A stretch of DNA of 64,000 nucleotides. Origin: Cyanobacteriota bacterium. GTDB lineage: Bacteria; Cyanobacteriota; Cyanobacteriia; Thermostichales; Thermostichaceae. The translations under genes and the position numbers were made by a program. The DNA lies in NCBI GenBank assembly GCA_033764955.1, contig JANRIL010000023.1, positions 64,001 through 128,000 on the forward strand, written 5' to 3'. Below the pieces are notes generated by a model, which was not told the DNA's origin, ran no database searches, and worked only from the letters and a program-made list of their open reading frames with translations. Positions 39,496 through 53,047 of the stretch are shown here, piece after piece (the first letter of the stretch is position 1; each line of letters starts with the position of its first letter).

Positions 39496-40641
39496 ATGAT
39501 TTGGCAACGCCGACAATTCCTGACCCTGCTAGCCGGAGCGACCGCCGTGCTTGCCCTCAAGCCGAGCGTCTCGGCTCAATCCCGCAAAAGCCTGCTGGTC
39601 ATCGAACTAGCGGGGGGGAACGATGGTCTCAACACCTTCATTCCCTATGCGGATCCTCACTATCGGCAACTACGCCCCAACTTGGCTATCCCAGACGGGA
39701 TCCCCATTAGCTCTCAGGTGGCCTTACACCCCGCCCTAGCCGATTGGCAGCCCCTTTTCCAAACGGGAGTCATGGCTCTCATCCAAAACGTCGGCTACCC
39801 CAATCCTTCTCTCTCCCATTTTCGTGCCAAAGAAATCTGGCAAAGCGCCTCTACGGATCCCAGCCCAGATACAGGTTGGTTAGGTCGTTACTTAGAGGCC
39901 AGCCAAGCCACCACCCAGGATGGTGTTTTTTTGGGCAACGAATATCCCCTCGCCCTGATGGGATCCACTACCCGCTATCTTTATCTGGCTCCGAAGTTAG
40001 TGGTCAAAACGGATAATGCCTTTGGGCAGGCCATGCGCGCCCTTTATCAACAACCTCTGGCCGAACCCCTAGCCGAACAGGTGCGCCAAACGGTTTTAGA
40101 AAATCTAGAAGCTGTGCAAACTCTCACCCGCGATCTGGAGGAACAGGCGGATCAGCAGGGATATGCCCCAAGCCCGACAGGACGAAGTTTTGCCTTAGCC
40201 AGCCGACTGATTCAAGCGGGATCCCCGGTGGTTTATCTAACGATTGGCGGCTGGGATACCCATGTCAACCAACCTGTCCGCCAGCAGTCGTTGCTCAGTC
40301 AGCTAGCCTCCGGTCTGACTACCTTCTATCGCCACCTGCAACAACTAGGGAGGCAACAACAGGTTTTGGTGATGGTGCAGAGTGAGTTTGGTCGGCGGCC
40401 TGCCGAAAATGGAGCCAGAGGAACTGATCACGGCACGGCTGGAGTGGTGTTGTTAGTGGGAGAAGGGGTGAAAGGGGGCTTTTATGGGGGGGATCCCCAT
40501 CTGGACAGTCTGGAAAAGGGCAACCTACCAATTGTTGTAGATTTTCGCAGCCTCTACAGCGAGATTTTGGATCGATGGCTAACCATTGAGAGTAAGCAGG
40601 TGATAGCTGGGAGTTTCCCCGCTTTGGGAGTGCTGAGTTGA
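39496..40641 (+). CDS. DUF1501 family protein with Tat-like signal
   Basis: RRQFL, GGNDGLNT, YPNPSLSHF, GGWDTH, SEFGRR..ENG..GTDHG. Confidence 0.9.
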   Translation: MIWQRRQFLTLLAGATAVLALKPSVSAQSRKSLLVIELAGGNDGLNTFIPYADPHYRQLRPNLAIPDGIPISSQVALHPALADWQPLFQTGVMALIQNVGYPNPSLSHFRAKEIWQSASTDPSPDTGWLGRYLEASQATTQDGVFLGNEYPLALMGSTTRYLYLAPKLVVKTDNAFGQAMRALYQQPLAEPLAEQVRQTVLENLEAVQTLTRDLEEQADQQGYAPSPTGRSFALASRLIQAGSPVVYLTIGGWDTHVNQPVRQQSLLSQLASGLTTFYRHLQQLGRQQQVLVMVQSEFGRRPAENGARGTDHGTAGVVLLVGEGVKGGFYGGDPHLDSLEKGNLPIVVDFRSLYSEILDRWLTIESKQVIAGSFPALGVLS

Positions 40642-40782
40642 ACCCATAAAACGGGATCCCTGTTGCAGAAACTTCAGAGCTATGACTAGAGAAAGGGGTG
40701 GATCCGCTTTCTGTCATTCAGTTCATCCGCAATATTAAACAATTATGATTTTTTAGAAAGTTGCTTAATCGTAGGTAGCCTC

Positions 40783-41334
40783 ATGAGTATTTACCACTTA
40801 GTTCCTGATGCTAATAGGTATCAATCCTTAGTTGTAGGAAGTGGCAAGAGACTCAATGAAGTAAGTAAGTTTACTTTTGGAAATCCTGTATTAGAAACTT
40901 GGAAGCCAGTACAAGTCAGACTTGCTACTGATCTTGACAAACCTCCCCTACCAGTTAGTGATTTTCCAGGATTGAGTGGAATGCCTGCTTTTACGGAGAA
41001 AGCAGTAAATGCTCTGGGAGAAATACTTAGAATCAATGGGGAGCTATTGCCATTAGAAAGTGATGATGGAATATTTTATCTCTACAATACTACAACTATT
41101 ATAGATGCTCTTGACGAAGGAAAGTCAGACTTATCAAGGAATCAAAATGGTTTAGTTCGTTTTATTAAAAAACATCACTTTGTTCCACAAAAGATTTCAC
41201 AACTTACTATTTTTAGACCTATACAGCTTCCTGATTATAGCTATCCCTGTGTGACAGATCGATTTGTAGAGGTTGTCGAACAAGCTCAGCTAACAGGCTT
41301 TCTGTTTCGCAAGCTTTGGTCAAGTGATGAGTAG
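40783..41334 (+). CDS. Imm11/DUF1629-like immunity protein (Imm-1)
   Basis: SDFP...PAFTEKA...NGELLPL...YLYN.T..IDALDE.KS...IF...VTDRFV..V....LTGF.F..LW. Confidence 0.75.
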   Translation: MSIYHLVPDANRYQSLVVGSGKRLNEVSKFTFGNPVLETWKPVQVRLATDLDKPPLPVSDFPGLSGMPAFTEKAVNALGEILRINGELLPLESDDGIFYLYNTTTIIDALDEGKSDLSRNQNGLVRFIKKHHFVPQKISQLTIFRPIQLPDYSYPCVTDRFVEVVEQAQLTGFLFRKLWSSDE

Positions 41335-42638
41335 CGAGTTGCTTATTCAGTCCGCCACCACCGCCGCCTCCCAGCCCAACTCCCACTCCGGATCCTTGCC
41401 ATTCTGACCAAAGTAGACTTCACCTCTCTGAGGGCGAAAGCAAAACTAGTTCTGTTTCCCCACAAGCCTTTGCAACTGCTATTAACCAATTCTTGGCTCT
41501 TGCCAATCCCAATGGCTGTATCCTCACGACTATTGAAGTTTTTGGCTTGGTAGGATACTCCACGGCTCAGTTGTTAGCCTTGGTTGAGGAGTATATGACA
41601 CCTGAGCAACTAGCTGCTTTTGCCGCTGCTCTAGAAGAGATTTATAACCAACCCGATCCGTTACCTTCTCCCAGCCCGACTCCCACACCTACTCCGGATC
41701 CTCCCCCAACTCCGGATCCCACTCCCTCCGCTTGTCCTTCTCCCTCTCCTAGTCCTTCACCGGATCCCAAAGTTGACGATAAGATTCCTGTCAAGGTTGT
41801 GGTGCATGACTATCAACAATTTACGATGAAGCTTAATGATAATGGTCATCATACTTCTGATGGTGATTCCGTTACTATTACCGTTGAACCTACTGGATAT
41901 ACTCTTAGTCCTGCTACAGGTGAGCAAGATTCTGTTAATTTATCGGCTCAAGATAAATCAAGTGTATTTGATCTCCAGTCAGTTGAGAACAAAGTCACCA
42001 TTGAGGGATTATCCGAGGGAGAATATCCGCCAGCTACCCTAGAATTTAAGATAGAAAAAGTAGAACTAGAACCGACTCCTGCTCCTGGATCTAGTCAATC
42101 GGTTAGCCTTACTACGTTTGAAGGGAGTGTTTTATTGAGTGCTAACCAGAATATTACCTTTGAAGTGGAGTGTCGTCGTCCTCCGGCTAGAGGCAGCGAC
42201 GATCCAGCTAAGCTAGCTAGAAATATGGAGAAAGGAGTACACATAAATTTATCTGGAAATGTGTTTTCAGAGCCATTTGGATATTATGGGCAAAGGATGC
42301 CATGTGGTACGACAGCTCATCATATAGTGCCGAAAGGAAACTTTAGCGGTAGTCCGGTGATGAGTGAAGCAGTACAAGCGTCTAGAGAGATTCTGGCTCA
42401 GTTTGATATTCACATTAACAGTGCATCAAACGGAGTGGTTTTGCCACAGAATGATAGTATTCCAGTGCCAGGAACACCTCATAATCAATCTCCAGGGCTT
42501 CATACGAACACTTATGTTCAGGAAGTTAGAAGGAGATTAGAAGCAGCAGCAAACAAATCAGGAGCAACAACATTATCAATACAGACTGAATTAAATCAAA
42601 TACGACAAGAGCTTATTGCAAAAACATTTCCCCATTGA
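41331..42638 (+). CDS. orphan toxin tip 1: Pro linkers + beta module + AHH nuclease
   Basis: Frame open from 41331 (first ATG 41595; TTG 41493); MPCGTTAHHIVP...INSASNGVVLP...HNQSPGLHTNTYVQEVRRRL. Confidence 0.8.
   Translation, partial: VASCLFSPPPPPPPSPTPTPDPCHSDQSRLHLSEGESKTSSVSPQAFATAINQFLALANPNGCILTTIEVFGLVGYSTAQLLALVEEYMTPEQLAAFAAALEEIYNQPDPLPSPSPTPTPTPDPPPTPDPTPSACPSPSPSPSPDPKVDDKIPVKVVVHDYQQFTMKLNDNGHHTSDGDSVTITVEPTGYTLSPATGEQDSVNLSAQDKSSVFDLQSVENKVTIEGLSEGEYPPATLEFKIEKVELEPTPAPGSSQSVSLTTFEGSVLLSANQNITFEVECRRPPARGSDDPAKLARNMEKGVHINLSGNVFSEPFGYYGQRMPCGTTAHHIVPKGNFSGSPVMSEAVQASREILAQFDIHINSASNGVVLPQNDSIPVPGTPHNQSPGLHTNTYVQEVRRRLEAAANKSGATTLSIQTELNQIRQELIAKTFPH
41715..41789 (+). repeat. 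75-bp Pro-linker repeat (copies at 44938-45012, 49000-49074; partial at 43288-43326)
   Basis: GATCCCACTCCCTCCGCTTGTCCTTCTCCCTCTCCTAGTCCTTCACCGGATCCCAAAGTTGACGATAAGATTCCT, identical in copy 2, one mismatch in copy 3. Confidence 0.95.
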
Positions 42639-42647
42639 GGCTGAAGC

Positions 42648-43199
42648 ATGAATATTTACCATTTAGTTCCTGATGCTAATAGGTATCAATCCTTAGTCGT
42701 AGGGAGTGGAAAGAGACTCAGAGAAGTAAGTAAGTTTACCTTTGGAAATCCTGTATTAGAGATTTGGAAGCCAGTGCAAGTCAGACTTGCTACTGATCTT
42801 GACAAACCTCCCCTACCAATTAGTGATTTTCCAGGGTTGAGTGGAATGCCTGCTTTCACAGGGAAAGCAATCGAATCTTTAGGAGAAATGCTTAGGATGA
42901 ATGGGGAGCTATTGCCGTTAGAAAGTGATGATGGAATATTTTATCTCTACAACACTACAACTATTGTTGATACACTTGATGAAGACAAATCAGACTTATT
43001 AAGGGATGAAAATGGTGGAATTCTTCATATTAAGAAACATTGCTTCATTCCTCAAAAGGTTGTAGAACTTACCATTTTTAAGACTGTGCAAATTCCTCAT
43101 GATAGCTATCCCTGTGTGACGGATCAATTTGTTAATGCTGTTGAACAGGCTCAATTAACGGGATTTGTGTTCCGCAAGCTTTGGTCAAGTGATGAGTAG
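42648..43199 (+). CDS. Imm11-like immunity protein (Imm-2), probable cognate of tip 1
   Basis: 9 nt after tip 1 stop; about 81% identical to Imm-1 by manual count. Confidence 0.8.
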   Translation: MNIYHLVPDANRYQSLVVGSGKRLREVSKFTFGNPVLEIWKPVQVRLATDLDKPPLPISDFPGLSGMPAFTGKAIESLGEMLRMNGELLPLESDDGIFYLYNTTTIVDTLDEDKSDLLRDENGGILHIKKHCFIPQKVVELTIFKTVQIPHDSYPCVTDQFVNAVEQAQLTGFVFRKLWSSDE

Positions 43200-43221
43200 T
43201 GAGTTGCAGGCAAATCAGTGA

Positions 43222-44175
43222 TTGTTCTTCATTGCCAGATCTAACTCACCCAGCCCAACTCCTACTTTCGATCCGACTCCTCCCCCAGATCCCACTCCCT
43301 CCGCTTGTCCTTCTCCCTCTCCTAGCCCTGACCTAAAGGATCCTGTTCCGTTTGCCTTTAAGTCTGCCGAAAGAGTTGTCTTGAAAGATGATATTTATTC
43401 CCTGAATATGAACTTTGAAGATAACGGATATCATCAAGATCAAGATCGCATCAAGATAACTATCGAATCTGCCGGATCTTTTAACCCTTCTACACCTGAT
43501 ATTGCAGCTCAACCTGCGCTTCCTCCTATCCATCTCACAGTCACTTTAGGAAATTCAGAGAAAATTGATTTGCCAGGATTTATCAATGATGTCACAATCG
43601 AGGCGATGGATTTAGGGAGCTATTCTGATGCTGCTACCCTCAACCTTTTGTTTAATAATTATGACCCAACAGGAGGGAGTATTAGTAGTTATAGTCAGTT
43701 CGAGTCATTGAGTGCCAATCTGCCAATGCTAGAGCTGGGTCAAAAGTATCAATTTAATTTGGAATGCAGGAGATTATTTTATACTTCCAGCAGTAACTCT
43801 GACCAACTGGCAAGGGCATTAGAAGCTGTTTATGGGGATATGCCCTGTGGCACAAGACCTCATCATATTGTGGCTGCAACGGCAACAGCAGCGAAATTAG
43901 CCCAGGATATTCTGAGAGATTATAGTATTGGCATCAATAGTGCTGAGAATGGAGTGATGTTGCCTGCTAATAGTGAGGTAGCGAAGCGTGTGCCAGGTGC
44001 TATCCACAATGGTGGGCATAGTGGTGATTATTATAGATCTGTTAACAATCGACTGAGAATAGCTAGAGATCAAGCACTTAGCAGCAATAACGATTACCAG
44101 CAGATTAGAGGGAAAATAATTGATGAACTAAGAGAAATTGCTAACGATCTAGTTGATGGAAGCCTACCATTGTAA
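43222..44175 (+). CDS. orphan toxin tip 2: Pro linker + beta module + AHH-type nuclease
   Basis: MPCGTRPHHIVA...INSAENGVMLP...HNGGHSGDYYRSVNNRL; only a TTG directly after an in-frame TGA. Confidence 0.8.
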   Translation: MFFIARSNSPSPTPTFDPTPPPDPTPSACPSPSPSPDLKDPVPFAFKSAERVVLKDDIYSLNMNFEDNGYHQDQDRIKITIESAGSFNPSTPDIAAQPALPPIHLTVTLGNSEKIDLPGFINDVTIEAMDLGSYSDAATLNLLFNNYDPTGGSISSYSQFESLSANLPMLELGQKYQFNLECRRLFYTSSSNSDQLARALEAVYGDMPCGTRPHHIVAATATAAKLAQDILRDYSIGINSAENGVMLPANSEVAKRVPGAIHNGGHSGDYYRSVNNRLRIARDQALSSNNDYQQIRGKIIDELREIANDLVDGSLPL

Positions 44176-44211
44176 AACCAAATCTCTAACAAAGACACAG
44201 AAGAGAAGCAA

Positions 44212-44850
44212 ATGAATATCTATATTCTTGACCAAGATGTAAATCCTTACAACTTGCTTAATCTTGAATCAAGTGATTCCAGAAGAATTACTGCTAACAA
44301 CAGAGAGAGAAAATGGCTCCATAAAAAGCCAATTAAGCATGAATGGATTCCTTGCAAAGCTTATTGGGTAACTGATGAAAAACCTAAAAAGTATCCTCTT
44401 TCAGACTTTCCCGGCTGTACAGCATTTCTAGCCTTCAGTCAGAAAGCAGTAAATGTATTAGAAGACCTGCTCATTCCAAGTGGTGAATTATTACCCATCA
44501 TTACCGAAGATGGAACCTATTACTGCTACAACGTAACTAACTTTGTGGATGCTCTGGATACAGAAAACTCTGAGTTTGATTATTACTATACTGCTGAGGA
44601 AGCTAAATTGCTAGCTCCTGGTTCTTATGGCTATTTAAGGACTAAGGGATTATTAACTGATCGTAGCCTTGGTCATATCATAAATTACAAGTTTCATCTT
44701 GATTTAGTCAAGAATCAAACTGTTTTCAGAATGAATTTATATCACTCAAAAGCTGGTTTGCTTTATGTGTCAGACATATTTGTTGAGCGGATCCAAGAGC
44801 ATGGGTTGTTGGGGTTTGCTCCCAAGTTAGTTTGGTCAAGTGATGAGTAG
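44212..44850 (+). CDS. divergent Imm11-like immunity protein (Imm-3), probable cognate of tip 2
   Basis: SDFPG...AFSQKAV..L...L..SGELLPI...YCYNVTNFVDALD..NS...YVSDIFVERI....L.GF...LVWSSDE. Confidence 0.75.
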   Translation: MNIYILDQDVNPYNLLNLESSDSRRITANNRERKWLHKKPIKHEWIPCKAYWVTDEKPKKYPLSDFPGCTAFLAFSQKAVNVLEDLLIPSGELLPIITEDGTYYCYNVTNFVDALDTENSEFDYYYTAEEAKLLAPGSYGYLRTKGLLTDRSLGHIINYKFHLDLVKNQTVFRMNLYHSKAGLLYVSDIFVERIQEHGLLGFAPKLVWSSDE

Positions 44851-45801
44851 CGAGCTGCTTATTTCAGTTCGCCTCCTTCACGCAGTCTAACTCCCACACC
44901 TACTCCGGATCCTCCCCCAACTCCGGATCCTCCCCCAGATCCCACTCCCTCCGCTTGTCCTTCTCCCTCTCCTAGTCCTTCACCGGATCCCAAAGTTGAC
45001 GATAAGATTCCTCCCTCCAGCATTGTCATTAGTTCCAATGAATATTTGCTTGAAAATGAGTTGTGGGATAATGGACATTATCCTGATGATGGAGACAGAG
45101 TTAGCATCACTGTTACACCTCTCCTGAATAAGCAAAATGGAGTCACTATCAACTCTCCATACCCACAAGTCGAAACTACCCAATCAAGCCAATTGCTTTG
45201 GGATCAGGGAACCGTAGCAAACCAGCCTCTTCAACTCAGAGCAGTTTTCAGTAAGATAAAGATTGAGGTAGCTTCTGAGGGGACTTATCCGCCTGCCACT
45301 ATGGGTTTTCAACTGCTGAACAGTATTTCTCCATCCTCAGCTACTGTTTGGAGTAGTCTTCTTGGAAGTGACGGTCAAGCCAATCAATTTATAGAATTTG
45401 AGGTGGAATGTCGGATATCACCCACTAATCGCCTAGCCCAAAACATTCAACAAGGGAGCCATTTACCTGAAGCGCCTCCCCCAACCTTTCAACCATGTGA
45501 TACTCAGACGCATCATATCGTAGAGCAAAATGATCTTTGTGCTCAGCAAGCACGAGATGTATTAGATAGCTATCAAATCAGCATTGATGATGCAGTGAAT
45601 GGAGTTTTCTTACCTGGGAGAAGAGAGTCCTATGCTCCTGGCCCATATCATCAAACTGTTCATACGGACAAATATATTGATACAGTAAATGAACTCTTAC
45701 AAATAGCAAAAACCAATAATAAACCAGTTAATGAAATAGTTCAAATCCTCAATGGATTAAGAGCTAGACTTCTGAACCATGATTCAACCCTATGGCTTTA
45801 G
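44851..45801 (+). CDS. orphan toxin tip 3: Pro linker + beta module + AHH-type nuclease
   Basis: Frame open from 44851 (track starts at TTG 45046); QPCDTQTHHIVE...IDDAVNGVFLP...HQTVHTDKYIDTVNELL. Confidence 0.8.
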   Translation, partial: RAAYFSSPPSRSLTPTPTPDPPPTPDPPPDPTPSACPSPSPSPSPDPKVDDKIPPSSIVISSNEYLLENELWDNGHYPDDGDRVSITVTPLLNKQNGVTINSPYPQVETTQSSQLLWDQGTVANQPLQLRAVFSKIKIEVASEGTYPPATMGFQLLNSISPSSATVWSSLLGSDGQANQFIEFEVECRISPTNRLAQNIQQGSHLPEAPPPTFQPCDTQTHHIVEQNDLCAQQARDVLDSYQISIDDAVNGVFLPGRRESYAPGPYHQTVHTDKYIDTVNELLQIAKTNNKPVNEIVQILNGLRARLLNHDSTLWL

Positions 45802-45805
45802 GCTT

Positions 45806-46351
45806 ATGAACATATACCATCTTGATATTGATAATGAGGGCGTCATGTTTCATTTTACGGATCCCAAACAATCCAAGAAACTGCTGGAAAATGGATGGAC
45901 GGAAGACAAATCAATTCAAGATACTTGGAATCCAGCCCATATTTCTATGTCAAAAAGACAAAGAGGTAAAATCCCAGGAGACCGTGCTACTATTTATGGA
46001 ACTATTCCAGTTTTTAGTGATTTAGCAGTTAAGGTTTTAGGCAGTTTCTTATTAGAGAGTGGAGAGCTTTTACCGCTGCAACCATGTTTTGGCACATATT
46101 TTGTTTATCACTTTACCTCGTCTTGTGATTGCCTAGATGAACGAAACTCTGAGTTTAGAACACTCCCTTCTGGATCACCAATAGAAATCATAAAACATTC
46201 ATTCTTCCCAAGTAAAATAGGTGATTTACAAGTTTTTAGGGTTCCTCATAAAAAATTTAAGATTTTCGTTCGCGATCAATTTGTCGAGTTAGTTCGCCAA
46301 CACCATTTAACAGGATTTAAGTTTGATAAAGTTTGGTCATCCTCTTCTTAG
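45806..46351 (+). CDS. Imm11-like immunity protein (Imm-4), probable cognate of tip 3
   Basis: MNIYHL start 4 nt after tip 3 stop; PVFSDLAV...SGELLPL...DCLDERNS...FVRDQFV..V....LTGFKF. Confidence 0.75.
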   Translation: MNIYHLDIDNEGVMFHFTDPKQSKKLLENGWTEDKSIQDTWNPAHISMSKRQRGKIPGDRATIYGTIPVFSDLAVKVLGSFLLESGELLPLQPCFGTYFVYHFTSSCDCLDERNSEFRTLPSGSPIEIIKHSFFPSKIGDLQVFRVPHKKFKIFVRDQFVELVRQHHLTGFKFDKVWSSSS

Positions 46352-46444
46352 ACACTCCAAAGCTCCTATCAGAGAAATGAAGAGTTAAACAATATAAGAA
46401 CAGGTTAAAATCAGATATATTTTCTCTTAATTAGGTCAAAGTGA

Positions 46445-46978
46445 ATGAATGTGTACGAACTTTATCCAGATGCCAATCAATTTCGGGGTTTCACTGTGGT
46501 AAAAACAGAGAACTTAAGTCTTGAGAGTTGCTTCTTTAGAGGAACCCCACTCCTAAATTCATGGCACTCACTTCATATAGAACCAGTCGAGCAGCATGTC
46601 ATTGAAAGCAGGAAATTGAGTGACTTTCCTGCTTTTTTTTCAATGATCTGTCCTGTATTTAGTAAAGCATCTGTTGATGTTTTACAAGATATTCTTTTAG
46701 AGAACGGAGAGGTACTACCTTTAATTTCCTCAATTGGCAATTATTTTGCTTATAATATCACTTGTATAGCTGATGTATTAGATGCTGAAAGTTCGATTAT
46801 AAGAAATAAAAATATCGAAAAACATGTATTTCATTCTAATAAAATTAGATCATTGAAAATATTTAAGATTCCGCAAACTATTTTAGTTAGAGCTTATGTG
46901 ACTGATGAATTTGTTGATCGAGTCAGTGTGGCTAAACTTACTGGATTCAAATTTAGATTTCTTTGGGCTGATTCATAA
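46445..46978 (+). CDS. orphan Imm11-like immunity protein (Imm-5)
   Basis: MNVYEL.PDAN, SDFP...PVFSKASV...NGEVLPL...YN.T...DVLD..SS...YVTDEFVDRV....LTGFKF. Confidence 0.75.
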   Translation: MNVYELYPDANQFRGFTVVKTENLSLESCFFRGTPLLNSWHSLHIEPVEQHVIESRKLSDFPAFFSMICPVFSKASVDVLQDILLENGEVLPLISSIGNYFAYNITCIADVLDAESSIIRNKNIEKHVFHSNKIRSLKIFKIPQTILVRAYVTDEFVDRVSVAKLTGFKFRFLWADS

Positions 46979-47097
46979 CTAATATTTCGATTGCAATCCT
47001 TCCTCGAACCACGAGATCTTGGGATTCTCAAGCTAAATTGGAACGGCTATAACTATCGATCATTTATCAACAACTACCAATTTTTCGAGGTGCCTAA

Positions 47098-48231
47098 ATG
47101 TATAACTGGATGTCAAAGAAAATTGGACAGGCAAAGCAAATTGCTAGCAAATATGACATCGAATGGTCATTTGTTTTTGAGCCTCCGGCTAGTTTGGAGC
47201 AAATTAATGATCATGAACTTTCACTAGATATTGTATTTCCACCAAGTTATCGAGAGTTCTTAATGTTACATAATGGTATGACGTTGTTCCTATCAGAAAA
47301 TTACTCAACAGCCATCAAGATATATGGACTTTCCGAGATAAAAAGATCTGAAAATCAATCAATCTTTGTTTTTTCTGACGACACTAATCGAGAATTTCAC
47401 TCAGGATTTCATATTAGCAAGGAACACTATGAGAGTAAAATAGTGAAATGCTATTATGACTATCCGTATGAAGATTGGCCTTTCCTAGTTATTGCTAATT
47501 CATTTGATCAATGGTTAAAGAGAATATTTAATGCTGTTACCTTTTGGGAGATAGACCCTAAATACTGGTTAACAGCCTACCAATATTCGGGATGGAGTCA
47601 AGATAATATCCTCCGGGTCTCAAAAAATAGATTTCTCGAATATTTATCTGAATCTTCTCAAGAAAGTCAGATCATCAAAGATTTAGTTTGCCGTGGAAAT
47701 CAGAAGAGACTGGAAAAAGATTTTCATAGCGCAATCGAATATTTTAATCGAGCAATAAACATTGATCCATTTAATTACTCTTATTTTTCTTCTCGTGGTT
47801 ATCTGCTTTTTCAAGCTAATCAGATTGAAAAAGCTCTAAGTGATTATAATTATAGCATTAGTAATTACCCTATGCCTTCTGACTATAAATATCGAGGGGT
47901 TATTCGTCATCAACTCGGTGACTTATGGGGTGCAGCACAGGATTTTACTTGTGCGATAGAGCATTATTGGACATGGACTAGTTATGACTTAGGAGATCCA
48001 TCCATTATTGCTGATATTTATTGTTTGCGTGCTCAGGTGCTTGTCAAAGTGAATAGAGGGATAGGAGCAGTGGAAGATTTAAAAAATGCTGCTATTATTT
48101 ACGATCACTGTCATAGAAGCTCTGAATATGAAGCTACTATTATCAAAATTAAGGAGATCCATCTGGATTGGGATGAAGCTGAGATTGCGGAAGTTGAAGA
48201 TTGGCTTAAACACCAGTTGCAACGATTTTGA
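47098..48231 (+). CDS. SMI1/KNR4 (SUKH) immunity domain fused to TPR repeats
   Basis: PPASLEQINDHELSLDIVFPPSYREFLMLHNG...IANSFDQWL; C-terminal RG...AIEYFNRAINIDP...SRG...ALSDYN TPRs. Confidence 0.85.
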   Translation: MYNWMSKKIGQAKQIASKYDIEWSFVFEPPASLEQINDHELSLDIVFPPSYREFLMLHNGMTLFLSENYSTAIKIYGLSEIKRSENQSIFVFSDDTNREFHSGFHISKEHYESKIVKCYYDYPYEDWPFLVIANSFDQWLKRIFNAVTFWEIDPKYWLTAYQYSGWSQDNILRVSKNRFLEYLSESSQESQIIKDLVCRGNQKRLEKDFHSAIEYFNRAINIDPFNYSYFSSRGYLLFQANQIEKALSDYNYSISNYPMPSDYKYRGVIRHQLGDLWGAAQDFTCAIEHYWTWTSYDLGDPSIIADIYCLRAQVLVKVNRGIGAVEDLKNAAIIYDHCHRSSEYEATIIKIKEIHLDWDEAEIAEVEDWLKHQLQRF

Positions 48232-48257
48232 GACAAGACTTTAGTCAGTCAACCAGC

Positions 48258-48344
48258 AGCAACAACATTATCAATACAGAATTAATACAGACTCAATTAA
48301 ATCAAATACAACAAGAACTAATTGCAAAAACATTTCCGCATTAA
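48258..48344 (+). pseudogene. remnant of a tip-1-like toxin 3' end
   Basis: AGCAACAACATTATCAATACAGA...AATTAAATCAAATAC.ACAAGA..T.ATTGCAAAAACATTTCC.CATT closely matches ~42563-42638. Confidence 0.85.
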
Positions 48345-48353
48345 GGCTGGAGC

Positions 48354-48905
48354 ATGAATATTTATCATTTAGTTCCTGATGTAAACAGATATCAATCCTT
48401 GATTGTAGGAAGTGGCAAGAGACTCAATGAAGTAAGTAAGTTTACTTTTGGAAATCCTGTATTAGAGATTTGGGAACCAGTACAAGTCAGACTTGCTACT
48501 GATCTTGACAAACCTCCCCTACCAATTAGTGATTTTCCAGGTTTAGGTGGAATGCCTGCTTTTACAGGAAAAGCAATCGAATCCTTAGATGAAATGCTTA
48601 GGATGAATGGGGAGTTATTGCCATTAGAAAGTGATGATGGAGTATTTTATCTCTACAACACTACAACTATTGTTGATGCTCTTGATGAAGAAAAATCAGA
48701 TCTCTTAAGAAATAAAAACGGTCAGATTCGTCATATTAGGAAACATCACTTCATTCCTCAAAAGGTTATAGAACTTATGATTTTTAAGACTGTGCAAGCT
48801 CCTCGAACAAGTTATCCCTGTGTGACAGATCGATTTGTTAATGCTGTTGAACAGGCTCAATTAACGGGATTTGTGTTCCGCAAGCTTTGGTCAAGTGATG
48901 AGTAG
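48354..48905 (+). CDS. Imm11-like immunity protein (Imm-6), paralog of Imm-1/Imm-2
   Basis: About 89% identical to Imm-2 by manual count; same 183-aa length. Confidence 0.8.
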   Translation: MNIYHLVPDVNRYQSLIVGSGKRLNEVSKFTFGNPVLEIWEPVQVRLATDLDKPPLPISDFPGLGGMPAFTGKAIESLDEMLRMNGELLPLESDDGVFYLYNTTTIVDALDEEKSDLLRNKNGQIRHIRKHHFIPQKVIELMIFKTVQAPRTSYPCVTDRFVNAVEQAQLTGFVFRKLWSSDE

Positions 48906-48933
48906 TGAGTTGCTTATTCAGGCAAATCAGTGA

Positions 48934-49132
48934 TTGTTCTTCATTGCCAGATCTAACTCACCCAGCCCAACTCCTACTTTCGATCCGACTCCTCCCCCGG
49001 ATCCCAGTCCCTCCGCTTGTCCTTCTCCCTCTCCTAGTCCTTCACCGGATCCCAAAGTTGACGATAAGATTCCTCCCTCCAGTATTGTCATTAGCTCCAA
49101 TGAATATTTGCTTGAAAATGAGTTGTGGGATA
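48934..49132 (+). pseudogene. truncated chimeric toxin tip 4
   Basis: Leader matches tip 2 (LFFIARSNSPSPTPTFDP), continuation matches tip 3 (KVDDKIPPSSIVISSNEYLLENELWD); similarity ends at ~49132 and there is no nuclease domain. Confidence 0.85.
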
Positions 49133-49336
49133 TCACGTGTCTCAGTAATTACTATGCAGGACTACCCGCCCCATGCCCTATTAGCTTTTGTCCCAATCAA
49201 TCTCAAAGGGATGCAAAGTTAGCGTATCAGCGAAATCACTTGGAAGCCTGAAGGGGGGTGATTGCTCCGTAGCCCCTTTCCCAGGGCAGTCGAGGGGGGT
49301 TAGCCTCTACCCGACCTTCAAGAGAAGAGCAGTATC

Positions 49337-51190
49337 TCAGCAGATCGGATCCCTGGTTGGGGGAGGTGGGAGAGTATAGCCCCGTGGTGTAATCAGATAG
49401 TGATGGTGATAGAAAGTCTGGCTGTTGCCGATCAACACCAGGGTCATCATATCGATCTGGGCTAAATCAGCCGCTTGTAGGGTGGTGCGGGTCAACGATT
49501 GATCCGCTCGATAGAGGGAGCGGGCTAACACCACCGGAGTTTGGGGATCCCGATAGCGCTGGAGAATCTCCCAGGCTTTTGTCAGTCCAGCCGTCCGCTT
49601 TTCGGAACGCGGGTTATAGAGGGCGATGACAAAATCGGAGCTGGCGGCGGCCTCTAGTCGCTCCTCAATGCGCGACCAGGGAATCAGCAGATCCGATAGG
49701 GAAATGGCACAAAAATCCTGCATCAAAGGGGATCCCAGTTGAGCCGCCGCCGCCTGCAAGGCTGTAATGCCGGGGAAGGTTTGTACCATCGGATGTTCCC
49801 CATCCCAGCCTGTTGCTGCCAAACACTGCAAAACCAAGCCCGCCATGCCATAGATCCCCGCGTCACCTGAGGACACCACTGCCACCCGCAACCCCCGCTG
49901 GGCAAGGGTGATAGCTCGTTGGGCACGGGTGATTTCTTGGGTGATCGGGCTGGCTTCCACAATTTGTCCGGCATGAAGCAAGGGATCCAGTAGTTCCAGA
50001 TAGAGCTGATAACCAATCACCACCTCTGCCTGGGTGAGAGCCGCCCGTGCCGCCGCCGTCATCTGGCTGAGTTCTCCAGGTCCCATGCCGATCAAGGCCA
50101 GAGATCCCTGACGAGGGGTGTATTCCTGCTGAGCACGGGCAATCGCTAGGGTGCAGGATCCCTGAGGGTGAAGATAGATCTGTTTTTCCACTAGCAACTG
50201 CTGAGTCTGAGCCGCTTGTAACGCCGCCGCTTCCGCCACCGATGGGGTTCCCACCGCCTGCTCCACCACCTCCGACGGATGAGGAACGGCCTGCCCAGCC
50301 AATTGGGATGGGGAATAAAAGCGAAGCGGCCACTGATAGCGATCCGCTAGCTCCTGAAGCGCCCGTTCATCCCGCTTCAGATCGAGACTGGCTAATCCCG
50401 CCATCGCCGCAAAGGCCAGATCATGCTGCTGCAACGTCGTGCGAATCGCCTCTACTAACACCTCCGTAGGGATCCCCCGTTCACAGCCCACCCCCACCCA
50501 GAGGGTACGGGGATGCCAAACCACCCTGGGTTGAGCCGTTGATGGCACAACCTGATCGGTAATCCAAAGCTGAGCTACTCCCTCTTTTCCCTCCCCACCT
50601 CCCGCCAAACCGAGCAGGGAATGGGATCCTGACCAGGCTTGTTTCCAGAGATCCCACCCACAGGTTTGTTTCACCTGCACCGGTTGTTGTTGGGTGAGGG
50701 CGGCAGCTACCGCTGTCCAATCTCCCGTGCCTTTTTGCCATCCATAGGGATCCCCTAGCTGATCGAGGGCAGGCAGGGCTTGGCCGCTGGAGGCGGAAGT
50801 AATCACTGCTTCTACTCCCAACAAAGCCGCCACCCGCCGACTTAAAGCATCCGCTCCCCCCCGATGCCCGCCACTCACACTGACCACAAATCGGCCTGTC
50901 TCATCCACCGCTACCACACCGGGATCCGAAGCCTTGTCCTGTAAGTGGGGGGCAATCAGCCGCACCACGCATCCCACCGCCAGAATAAACACTAGCCCAC
51001 TCCCCCGCCCCCACAACTCCCCCACCGCCTGCGCCAGGGATCCCTCATACACGCACAACTCTGCGGCCGGTAGGGTGGCGGCGGTGGCTGCCGAAGTCCA
51101 GATGGCGCAATTGGATAAGCCCTGCCGCAGTTGTAACGCCAAGCGACAGCCGCGCGGGGTCGCCGCCATGATCACTATCGACACAAGCAA
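49337..51190 (-). CDS. cobJ: CbiG-CbiH fusion (precorrin-3B C17-methyltransferase)
   Basis: DPGVVAVDETG...GGHRGGA, WVGVGCERG, VGTPSVAEAAAL; IGMGPG, VSSGDAGIYGMAG, DFCAISLSDLL, LYNPRS, ITPRGY. Confidence 0.93.
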   Translation of the reverse strand: MLVSIVIMAATPRGCRLALQLRQGLSNCAIWTSAATAATLPAAELCVYEGSLAQAVGELWGRGSGLVFILAVGCVVRLIAPHLQDKASDPGVVAVDETGRFVVSVSGGHRGGADALSRRVAALLGVEAVITSASSGQALPALDQLGDPYGWQKGTGDWTAVAAALTQQQPVQVKQTCGWDLWKQAWSGSHSLLGLAGGGEGKEGVAQLWITDQVVPSTAQPRVVWHPRTLWVGVGCERGIPTEVLVEAIRTTLQQHDLAFAAMAGLASLDLKRDERALQELADRYQWPLRFYSPSQLAGQAVPHPSEVVEQAVGTPSVAEAAALQAAQTQQLLVEKQIYLHPQGSCTLAIARAQQEYTPRQGSLALIGMGPGELSQMTAAARAALTQAEVVIGYQLYLELLDPLLHAGQIVEASPITQEITRAQRAITLAQRGLRVAVVSSGDAGIYGMAGLVLQCLAATGWDGEHPMVQTFPGITALQAAAAQLGSPLMQDFCAISLSDLLIPWSRIEERLEAAASSDFVIALYNPRSEKRTAGLTKAWEILQRYRDPQTPVVLARSLYRADQSLTRTTLQAADLAQIDMMTLVLIGNSQTFYHHHYLITPRGYTLPPPPTRDPIC

Positions 51191-51289: not shown

Positions 51290-53047
51290 ATGACACCTTC
51301 ACCACTCCTCGACCTTGCCAAACAGGGGGATCCCCAGGCGATTGCCCACCTGCTCAACCACAGCCTGCGCTCCCGTGGGTTAACCGCCACCGTCACCCGC
51401 CAGCACCACATCCTCACCATCCAGCTAACGGGGGATCCATCTCCGGATCCCGCCTCCACCCTGAGTATGTTGCACAAAGGCTTGGTGCGCTTGGCCGTTC
51501 AGGGCATCACCCAAGTTGAGATAGCCGCCTTTCTAAAAAATCAGGCCACCCCAGTCTGGCAGCGCTCCTTCACCCTCTTCCCCCCTGCCCTCAGCCCCCC
51601 TCCCCTCCAAGTGGGATCCCTTCTTCACAACCGCTATCGCTTAGAAAAGCTGCTGGCCGAAAATGCCTTTCGGCAAACCTGGTTAGCCAAAGACCGAGAT
51701 CAGCGCCCCGTTGTGGTGAAATGGCTCACCTTTGGTGGACAAATGAGCTGGCAAGACTACGATTTATTTGAGCGAGAAACCAAAGTCCTACAGCACCTCA
51801 ACCACCCCCATATTCCCTGCTACCGAGATTCCTTTGTGATCGAGGGATCCCCTACGGTTTTTGGCCTTGTCTATGACTATGTGCCCGGATATTCCCTCAA
51901 AGAATGGTTGACCCAGGGAAAACATTTTACCGAATCCGAGGTACGTCAGATTGCTGAGAGCGTCCTCAATATTTTGATTTATTTACATCAACTCAATCCT
52001 CCCCTATTGCATCGCGATATCAAACCCAGCAACCTGATTGTGGGGGAAGATCAAGAGATTTATCTGGTGGATTTTGGAGCGGTGCAAGATCACTCCACCC
52101 GCGAAGGGCGCACCTTTACGGTGGTGGGTACCTACGGCTATGCGCCCACCGAACAGTTTGGCGGACGAGCCGTCCCCGCCTCCGATCTCTATGGTCTCGG
52201 AGCCACCCTGATTCACCTGCTGACCGGCACCGCTCCCGCCGATTTGCCCCAACGGGAGTTACGCATTCAGTTTGCCGGACGGGTTAGCATTGATGCCAGT
52301 TTTGCCCGTTGGCTCAGCCGCCTGGTGGAACCCGCCCCCGAACATCGCTATCGCACCGCTCAGCAAGCCCTAGCCGTCCTGCAAAATCCCCGCCTCGACA
52401 GCGTGGATCCCCAAGCCAAAATGAACCTTGCTCAGGCGGAAGTCAAAGCCTTGGTGGGATCCCTGCAAACCCCCCATCAAGTAGATCGTCTCCTACAAAC
52501 CTCTCACCTTCGATCCAATAAAATTGGCAAACCCTACGGTACGCAAGTGGAAGTGAAACATTCCCCCAATCAGCTATCCATTCATATTCCCCGCCGCGGC
52601 ATCCGATTGTTAGATATACCTTTTTTAGGTATTTGGGGATTTTGGATTATCACGATACTGGTCGGGAGCATCATTCACCTGCTGACCAATTTAACAGCTC
52701 CCATCGGCCTCCCTCTATTTTTTTTGCTCCTTGCCATAGGGATCCTGACCTGGTTGCTGCAATTTTATTTGGGTACGACAGAAGTAAAATTCACCCAGCA
52801 AGACTTTCAAATTGAGCGCCGTTTTGCCGGGATCCTCCTGCGCCGAGGGGGGATTATTGCCCCCATTTTGGATGTCTTTCAAGAAACCCGTTATAATCGC
52901 CACTGGAGCGGCGTGCTTCTCCCCAAAGATGACCAAGTGACCATTCAGATGGGGATCCACACCTACTCCTTCGGGCATCAAGCCCTTACTAAAGTAGAAT
53001 GCCTCTGGATTGCCCACGAGATCAAACAATGGATAGGATTAGCTTAG
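51290..53047 (+). CDS. Ser/Thr protein kinase with cyanobacterial N-terminal domain and C-terminal TMs
   Basis: VVVK, FERE..VL, HRDIKPSNLI, LVDFGAVQ, VVGTYGYAP.EQF, SDLYGLGATL. Confidence 0.93.
   Translation: MTPSPLLDLAKQGDPQAIAHLLNHSLRSRGLTATVTRQHHILTIQLTGDPSPDPASTLSMLHKGLVRLAVQGITQVEIAAFLKNQATPVWQRSFTLFPPALSPPPLQVGSLLHNRYRLEKLLAENAFRQTWLAKDRDQRPVVVKWLTFGGQMSWQDYDLFERETKVLQHLNHPHIPCYRDSFVIEGSPTVFGLVYDYVPGYSLKEWLTQGKHFTESEVRQIAESVLNILIYLHQLNPPLLHRDIKPSNLIVGEDQEIYLVDFGAVQDHSTREGRTFTVVGTYGYAPTEQFGGRAVPASDLYGLGATLIHLLTGTAPADLPQRELRIQFAGRVSIDASFARWLSRLVEPAPEHRYRTAQQALAVLQNPRLDSVDPQAKMNLAQAEVKALVGSLQTPHQVDRLLQTSHLRSNKIGKPYGTQVEVKHSPNQLSIHIPRRGIRLLDIPFLGIWGFWIITILVGSIIHLLTNLTAPIGLPLFFLLLAIGILTWLLQFYLGTTEVKFTQQDFQIERRFAGILLRRGGIIAPILDVFQETRYNRHWSGVLLPKDDQVTIQMGIHTYSFGHQALTKVECLWIAHEIKQWIGLA

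Follow-up and report, generated by a model that had tools for sequence, protein, structure and literature searches.

In Myxococcus xanthus, SitA proteins are lipoproteins in which an N-terminal escort domain of ~375 amino acids (aa) is joined to polymorphic C-terminal nucleases, AHH among them; the SitAI5 family comprises ahh-imm11 loci, and delivery is via TraAB outer membrane exchange, as set out in the available sections of the source papers (PMC8546572, PMC12077181). Tox-AHH and Imm11 in cyanobacteria were already tabulated by Zhang et al. in 2012, in the part of that survey at hand (PMC3482391). Here we describe an island of AHH-type toxin tips and Imm11-type immunity genes at positions 40649-49132 of a 64,000-nucleotide (nt) stretch, hereafter the window, of a member of the cyanobacterial family Thermostichaceae (assembly GCA_033764955.1, contig JANRIL010000023.1, positions 64,001 to 128,000). 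We put the probability at roughly three in four that this island is the disarmed one of two paralogous polymorphic-toxin arrays, the functional unit being an exported lipoprotein toxin encoded on another contig, C4. The closest described system is SitA/SitI of M. xanthus, especially SitAI5.

A candidate lipoprotein toxin and its two arrays

When the whole genome was searched with Tip1, the first of the window tips, and with the AHH family, another array came to light on C4 (locus L020). The gene that opens it codes for a carrier protein whose N-terminus, MARSIWLWGGLLSFGLAAC, shows a hydrophobic core after a basic N-region; the lipobox cysteine is residue 19. Behind the lipobox lie a stretch rich in Ser and Pro, a ~80-residue domain that contains 8 Cys and is rich in Tyr, more than 20 prolines in a run and a helical module, and then a second Pro-rich linker, a beta module and an AHH domain (49.0 bits). 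Carrier residues 183-614 are 91% identical to window Tip1, and the genes behind it are, in order, ImmA, a Tip2-type gene, ImmB, a Tip3-type gene, ImmC, a Tip2-type AHH fragment and a second ImmB-type gene. Window positions 41352-46377 align with the C4 array over 5060 nt at 88% identity (blastn), with the cassette order alike. This alignment, together with the absence of carrier codons 1-~182 from the window, makes the window array a paralogue of the C4 array with an Imm11 gene in place of the export head; the breakpoint lies where the tip leader (SCLFS-PPPP) meets the first poly-Pro tract of the carrier. Lacking an export head, the window array would be no weapon on its own and would amount to a disarmed reservoir with three complete cassettes and surplus immunity in ImmA1, ImmA3, ImmD and SUKH-TPR. 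The features are as follows, in window coordinates except for the carrier.

L020:10608-12452, -: carrier lipoprotein, 614 aa, first gene of the C4 array
40649-40771, +: 124-nt stretch abutting the ImmA1 start codon; 92-93% identity among its copies (blastn)
40783-41334, +: ImmA1, type-A Imm11 gene in the place of the carrier's export head; PF07791 30.4 bits (cut-off 22.1); 74-81% identical to the other type-A Imm genes
41315-41347, +: junction of Imm11 3′ end and tip leader, repeat family D6, with the last Imm11 codons, the stop and the tip leader TTTGGTCAAGTGATGAGTAG[C/T]GAG..; further copies start at 43180, 44831 and 48886
41331-42638 (open frame), +: Tip1, a carrier truncated at its 5′ end, with poly-Pro, helical module, Pro linker, beta-sandwich (41781-42179) and AHH (42180-42635); first canonical start TTG at 41493
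42648-43199, +: ImmA2, cognate-type Imm11 of Tip1; PF07791 33.9 bits; 76% identical to the Imm gene 3′ of the C4 carrier
43222-44175, +: Tip2, with Pro linker, beta-sandwich (43339-43773) and AHH (43774-44172), the latter 85% identical to the C4 Tip2-type AHH
44212-44850, +: ImmB, type-B Imm11, cognate type of Tip2; PF07791 34.1 bits; 91% identical to C4 ImmB
44851-45801 (open frame), +: Tip3, with Pro linker, beta-sandwich (45004-45417) and AHH (45418-45798); first canonical start TTG at 45046
45779-46351, +: ImmC, type-C Imm11, cognate type of Tip3; PF07791 40.7 bits; 82% identical to C4 ImmC
46445-46978, +: ImmD, orphan Imm11-like gene with no toxin upstream; PF07791 15.6 bits, below the 22.1 cut-off
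47098-48231, +: SUKH+TPR, orphan immunity-type gene; SMI1_KNR4 PF09346 43.9 bits (cut-off 25.4), TPR_1 47.2 bits
~48251-48341, +: Tip1-type C-terminal remnant of ~26 codons, repeat families D7 and D2
48354-48905, +: ImmA3, third type-A Imm11; PF07791 36.1 bits; 89% identical to ImmA2
48934-49251 (frame; tip homology 48919-49132), +: TipDelta, truncated chimera of a Tip2-type leader and the first ~25 codons of a Tip3-type tip

The frames of Tip1, Tip2 and Tip3 run for 435, 317 and 316 codons with no internal stops, and all six window Imm genes are full length with an ATG start. The gap from toxin to immunity gene is 9 nt for Tip1-ImmA2 and 36 nt for Tip2-ImmB, while Tip3 and ImmC overlap. The remnant matches residues 410-435 of the Tip1-type protein P0001 at window 48264-48341 (C44:112264-112341). 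No signal peptide was found in any of the window tips.

All three window tips are predicted AHH-family HNH/EndoVII domains: Pfam family PF14412 scores above its curated cut-off of 22.3 bits in each, at 51.8, 47.2 and 50.0 bits (E-values 9.5e-14 for Tip1, 2.5e-12 for Tip2 and 3.4e-13 for Tip3), and the catalytic residues are intact throughout. In an alignment of 11 AHH domains (A3), the invariant residues are the first H of HH, I and V of HHIV, N and G of INSA.NGV.LP, and H, H, Y, V and L; the second H of HH is kept in 10, the exception being the C4 Tip2-type copy, which reads PHY. The residue preceding HH is A, P or T, whereas the motif is given as [AG]HH, N, H, H, Y in the table of Zhang et al., on the text available (PMC3482391). 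Searched against longer proteins, the AHH domain returned only the window's own protein, the AHH profile had no meaningful match in the PDB, and a metagenome scan with the AHH alignment gave seven loci with 24-residue matches only.

The Imm11 family (PF07791) is likewise above its cut-off in five of the six window Imm genes, at 30.4-40.7 bits. ImmD, the sixth, is alignable with the others (alignment A4), and its best match, at 52%, is the Imm gene adjoining a lipoprotein AHH toxin in genome G017 of the same family. The Imm profile from A4 matches the structure of Myxococcus MXAN_0049 (6a4c) with E 7e-4, and all nine Imm11-family matches in the genome lie within the window and C4 arrays. Tips and Imm genes follow one another in the same order in both arrays (Tip1-A, Tip2-B, Tip3-C), and the C4 Tip2-type AHH fragment likewise precedes a type-B Imm gene. 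Within types, identities are 72-91% for Imm and 78-87% for AHH, against 31-42% and 35-45% between types. By these sequence comparisons, toxin-immunity pairing is conserved in the two arrays. The predicted complex of the Tip1 AHH domain with ImmA2 scored 0.25, against a mark of 0.32.

An initial annotation, made from the letters of the window, had anticipated much of this. The cassette order it gave, with every element on the + strand, agrees with the open reading frame (ORF) list, and the AT-rich island it saw is borne out by a GC content of 0.32-0.46 across 40500-48999 versus 0.49-0.61 in the flanks. The tip motifs that it quoted are real, and its assignments of the tips to AHH and the downstream genes to Imm11, with a different Imm type for each tip, are upheld by the Pfam scores and the two arrays above. 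It also reported no Rhs, CdiA, LXG, MafB, PAAR or VgrG marker, in accord with our Pfam scan of the tips and carrier at E up to 0.1, which found none of the Rhs, CdiA, LXG/WXG, MafB, PAAR, VgrG or FHA/TPS families. Its right boundary, 49132, stands, and its left one, 40783, moves to 40649, the start of the 124-nt stretch common to the C4 array. The one part of its interpretation not supported as it stands is the proposal that the carrier may be undescribed: the check that it suggested itself turns up a lipobox carrier on C4, and lipoprotein carriers of AHH-Imm11 pairs are known (SitA). The setting it suggested, competition in mats or biofilms, is speculation.

Recombination at junctions and Pro-rich linkers

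The tip frames open right behind the stop of the preceding Imm11 gene, and the junction DNA is conserved even between Imm types with just 37% protein identity. At the C4 junction, a GTG that overlaps the TAG stop provides the in-frame start of a Tip2-type gene of 320 aa, whose product begins MSCLFSSPPPP. In the window, this GTG reads GCG before Tip1 and Tip3 (44851); it is present at 43199 (Tip2) and 48905 (TipDelta), where it is out of frame with the tip.

Identity between the two arrays is a mosaic, with 41726-42025 and 44917-45616 at 95-99% (44917-45616 taken singly at 96-99%) and 64-92% elsewhere, and both near-identical tracts begin in Pro linkers. Within the window, TipDelta positions 48919-49041 are 98% identical to 43207-43329 (repeat family D5), and 48984-49132 are 96% identical to 44922-45070 (family D4); TipDelta is evidently a chimera of a Tip2 leader and a Tip3 body, joined in the linker. 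The mosaic tracts and this chimera together show recombination via the linkers, between cassettes as well as between arrays, with beta-sandwich, AHH domain and Imm gene as the swapped unit. They also give direct sequence support to the earlier suggestion that the island is a reservoir of swappable tips. NCBIfam TonB models matched the Pro spacers as well; these matches reflect Pro-rich composition only.

Ten segments could be used to compare the rates of nonsynonymous and synonymous substitution (dN and dS) between the arrays, the Tip1 helix and linker being left out, with the C4 side out of frame. Nine of these beta, AHH and Imm segments have dN/dS of 0.11-0.32; the tenth, Tip3 beta, gives 0.58 on near-zero divergence. 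The dS is 0.012 for Tip3 beta, 0.235 for Tip3 AHH and 0.767 for ImmC.

The genome has exactly three copies of the 124-nt stretch, at window 40649-40771, C44:209-332 and C4:64483-64608 (L020 12484-12609), and the C4 copy ends 27 nt upstream of the carrier ATG. In the C44:209-332 copy, the opening portion coincides with the 3′ end of a gene that is unrelated and ends ..GSLLQKLQSYD. The first ~28 nt of the stretch recur on C4 behind the last Imm11 gene (L020 5658-5686); both C4 copies adjoin a Pro-linker fragment, so a direct repeat brackets the C4 array. A simple scan found no sigma-70-like promoter in the 124-nt stretch upstream of ImmA1. A separate dispersed small repeat of ~90-130 nt, with 75-95% identity, is found on many contigs (C44:372-600 and more than 30 other places), and a partial copy lies at window 47013-47052, just 5′ of the SUKH-TPR gene.

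The island is flanked by a DUF1800/DUF1501 pair and a cbiG-cobJ fusion (Pfam). The latter, at 49337-51190 on the - strand, is one 617-aa ORF with the N-terminal, middle and C-terminal domains of CbiG and a tetrapyrrole methylase of CobJ type; beyond it, at 51290-53047 (+), is a 585-aa ORF with hydrophobic helices near its C-terminus and with HRDIKPSNL and DFG, which by eye we take to be Ser/Thr protein kinase motifs. Orthologues of DUF1501 are present in 9 of 22 genomes of the family, and cbiG/cobJ comes next in none of the seven downstream stretches compared, several of them short; with stretches partly short and lacking cbiG/cobJ, no empty site can be defined. A DUF1501 search of genome contigs gave distant non-cyanobacterial loci only. 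The genome has 11 phycobilisome-family matches, as expected of a cyanobacterium.

Carrier relatives and two unnamed domains

With a profile built from 12 copies of the beta module (alignment A1), we found the module in 7 of 30 genomes of the order and 7 of 401 of the class. All seven belong to one family (7/23, this genome included), and elsewhere in the class there are none (0/378). A lipobox is matched by regular expression in all nine full-length N-termini, those of the C4 carrier and its relatives, seven read from ATG and two from TTG or GTG; the same expression matches 62 of 2247 ORFs of at least 200 aa (2.8%) in the carrier's own genome.

The toxin ends of these relatives differ. The G017 protein (L022:1492-3072) has 526 aa, the lipobox ..LTLYAC, two beta modules and an AHH domain (58 bits), and is followed by an Imm11-like gene. 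Those of G005 (L036:4651-5907) and G013 (L043:1081-2334) have the lipobox ..LILFVGC and one beta module, and end in EndoU_bacteria (E 2.4e-11 and 5.2e-11); each toxin gene is followed by a small ORF of ~140 aa. In G003 and G010, lipoboxes ..FLTSC and ..FLSSC, from a TTG or GTG start, precede an N-terminal region of ~700 aa, a hydrophobic helix, a Pro linker, a beta module and an AHH domain matched only weakly (19.9 bits), with three Imm11-like genes downstream in G003 and two in G010. In G002, a lipobox protein of 817 aa matches the beta module weakly (1.8e-8) and shows no Pfam toxin domain. A lipoprotein scaffold with differing toxin ends (AHH, EndoU) is the signature of a polymorphic toxin family, and a shared trafficking head, variable toxin ends, adjacent immunity and stand-alone cassettes, in the sense of Zhang et al. 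2012, are all found here.

Several further features of these loci were seen. A cysteine motif, C.TCCRRC..GKACG..CI.....C....GCAC, lies behind the lipobox in the G017, G005 and G013 toxins and has no Pfam match. The large lipoprotein AHH toxin of G010 is split in two frames of 644 and 385 aa (L035:3-3072), and a second beta-AHH copy there (L034:6520-7257) has in-frame stops, one TAA in one match and one TAG plus one TAA in another; these split or stop-bearing copies suggest that toxins decay in relatives too. Another lipobox protein without a beta module adjoins the toxin-immunity cluster in G003 (L033:658-2349) and G010 (L035:4477-7434), with a weak match to the VWD domain (E ~9e-4, below cut-off).

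The AlphaFold2 model of the carrier, from a 10-row alignment, has a mean predicted local distance difference test score (pLDDT) of 56.8, with 75-90 in the helical module (217-282), 62-83 in the beta module and 72-95 in AHH. Modelled alone, the beta module is predicted to be a nine-strand sandwich (pLDDT 84.5; predicted template modelling score 0.79), and its best Foldseek E-value is 0.018. A word-based search with the module returned only the window's own Tip1, Pfam, scanned with all 12 members at E up to 10, showed no consistent match, and the ESM Atlas yielded no usable one. For the helical module, an RxLR effector (Z 6.7) and the CdiA-CT entry 6vek (Z 5.7) came up below the noise level of helical folds and were not used.

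A word-based search with the carrier N-terminus among proteins of 337-1075 aa found no relative, nor did a metagenome scan; phmmer against 1.84 billion representatives gave two matches, P0002 (1.3e-11) and P0003, of which we discount P0003 as a low-complexity repeat protein. P0002 (511 aa), the sole credible relative of the carrier head, has four tandem repeats of a C..C..(D/P)HCW..Y.Y..C domain and a C-terminal tail that by eye we take to be like a type IX secretion sorting signal. The carrier head may be a rare extracellular domain common to several phyla. Within these searches, the carrier N-terminal domain and the beta module match no named family.

Competing readings and known systems

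On the reading we prefer, a disarmed window array beside a functional C4 toxin, the C4 protein would be exported by Sec, lipidated and anchored in a membrane facing outward, with rigid Pro spacers projecting its toxin end, which would reach a neighbour on contact, via vesicles or upon release. The beta-sandwich might aid binding or entry, as do the escort or entry domains of SitA, CdiA-CT and colicins, and the AHH domain would then cut DNA in a neighbour that lacks the matching Imm11. Most probably the window array provides additional immunity, from six Imm11-type genes and one SUKH gene, and donor cassettes of beta-sandwich, AHH and Imm that would move by homologous recombination through the conserved stretch spanning the Imm 3′ end and the Pro linker.

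A number of points weigh against parts of this. The lipobox call comes from a PS51257-style regular expression rather than a trained predictor, and the assembly, in 48 contigs, is 89% complete. Neither this 89%-complete genome nor the Synechococcus elongatus control yielded a match to LolA (PF03548), which leaves sorting of the lipoprotein to the outer membrane uncertain; both genomes encode LspA, the signal peptidase II (PF01252). Carrier residues 1-170 have pLDDT below 40, the predicted fold of the beta module matches only generic sandwiches (Ig, Calx-beta, PLAT and C2; best Z 6.0-6.7), and the entry role suggested for it is pure analogy. The in-frame GTG start of the C4 Tip2-type gene is kept in none of the four window tips, which for this reason may be silent, and the C4 Tip2-type copy, with PHY for PHH, may be inactive. 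Among the orphan tips, only that copy (L020:9084-10046, -) has its in-frame GTG intact; window Tip2, which lacks this start, retains PHH.

The losses in the window would also fit a decaying, unexpressed duplicate of the C4 array that is neither immunity nor donor: the signal peptide and Cys domain are missing, the GTG start reads GCG (Tip1, Tip3) or lies out of frame (Tip2, TipDelta), one tip survives only as a Tip1-type tail and another as a truncated chimera, and no promoter-like site was found 5′ of ImmA1 in the simple scan. We regard this as unlikely, since the tip frames are long and free of stops, their catalytic residues are intact, dN/dS against the C4 copies is 0.11-0.32, the near-identical conversion tracts indicate recent exchange with C4, and all six Imm genes are full length with ATG. 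Less credible still, in our view, is that the modules are intracellular toxin-antitoxin or phage-defence pairs, acting in addiction or abortive infection and not exported, even though the window tips lack a signal peptide, the coupling of toxin and immunity genes is tight, stop and start overlapping at the junction, and the low-GC island looks acquired. The full-length paralogue and all full-length relatives start with a signal peptide and lipobox, and long PT/PS-rich spacers and conserved cysteines are typical of exported proteins. PADLOC at E 0.01 matched none of 10 tip, Imm11 and carrier proteins (SUKH-TPR had one weak match, PDC-M40A, E 0.0032, 15.3 bits), and the experimentally studied AHH-Imm11 pairs are interbacterial toxins, on the available text (PMC12077181).

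The carrier could instead be a soluble secreted bacteriocin, cleaved by signal peptidase I or clipped in a Pro linker and diffusing to its targets. For Tox-AHH, Zhang et al. give export by type II secretion (signal peptide only), with cyanobacteria among the hosts, in the portion of the survey at hand (PMC3482391); LolA was not found, and the two long Pro linkers are plausibly accessible to proteases. Against this stands the lipobox cysteine that ends the signal peptide in nine of nine full-length N-termini, on a background of 2.8%, and we think a diffusing bacteriocin very unlikely. More speculative than the two-array reading, and in our judgement possible at rather less than even odds, is a SitA-like weapon evolved within this family, in which lipid-anchored toxins pass between cells without TraAB, through outer-membrane contact or fusion, vesicles or release from the long Pro-rich stalk, and the beta-sandwich is a new entry or receptor module swapped together with the nuclease.

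To our knowledge, little is known of how cyanobacteria fight or recognise their own kind, and a literature search that most subscription journals lay outside found nothing on lipoprotein-borne polymorphic toxins in this phylum, only the 2012 survey of Tox-AHH/Imm11. The system here is compact: one export-ready lipoprotein toxin, two arrays, three matched toxin-immunity types and clear recombination handles, as well as a beta-sandwich that is confined to the lineage and on which target entry may depend. Should the lipoprotein route prove true, the SitA principle reaches beyond myxobacteria, and how a lipid-anchored protein exits a cyanobacterial cell becomes the question; if transfer is also free of TraAB, lipoprotein-toxin exchange and kin discrimination are not peculiar to myxobacteria, and the locus would be a first handle on lipoprotein exposure or transfer in cyanobacteria, which appear to be LolA-less. 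If the route is false, the locus is still a clean case of orphan-cassette dynamics with a Pro-rich linker as the recombination site.

CdiA-CT/CdiI and Rhs-CT/RhsI loci have a full-length gene followed by promoterless or start-less toxin-immunity cassettes with a shared junction. The arrays here resemble these contact-dependent inhibition (CDI) and Rhs orphan arrays in having a shared junction handle, in this case one that spans the Imm 3′ end and the Pro linker, and differ in lacking FHA, VENN, Rhs, PAAR and TpsB features, in having a small lipoprotein as carrier, in using a low-complexity Pro-rich linker as the handle and in swapping a beta-sandwich as part of the unit. Tip replacement by recombination is a general principle stated in the available text of PMC3482391. 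From what that text describes, the Amoebophilus proteins APD1/APD2 share the signal peptide, lipobox, lineage-specific N-terminal domain and polymorphic C-termini; unlike these predicted eukaryotic-host effectors, which have no immunity genes, our loci pair AHH or EndoU nucleases with immunity genes (PMC3482391). A Myxococcus AHH toxin of type VI secretion, countered by MXAN_0049 (the prototype Imm11, 6a4c), likewise joins AHH toxin to Imm11 immunity; in our case no type VI marker was found, Hcp (PF05638) being unmatched in the 89%-complete genome, while the E. coli control matched.

SitA is closer than any of these. As in the available descriptions of SitA, there are a lipobox head, a non-toxic N-terminal region, a polymorphic C-terminal nuclease with Imm11 directly downstream, and several loci per genome. 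A Pfam scan of the carrier at E up to 0.1 did not bring up PF09533, the family named for SitA6, and the TraA-type MYXO-CTERM model (TIGR03901) had no match in this genome, nor in any control genome. Unlike SitA, the host is a cyanobacterium; and unlike SitA as far as those descriptions go, the carrier N-terminus combines a small domain rich in Cys and Tyr with Pro spacers, a helical module and a beta-sandwich, none of which matches a named family, and a main gene is accompanied by orphan cassette arrays. What appears to be new here is thus the host phylum, the two unnamed domains (one limited to a single family), the Pro-linker recombination handle and the putative delivery route.

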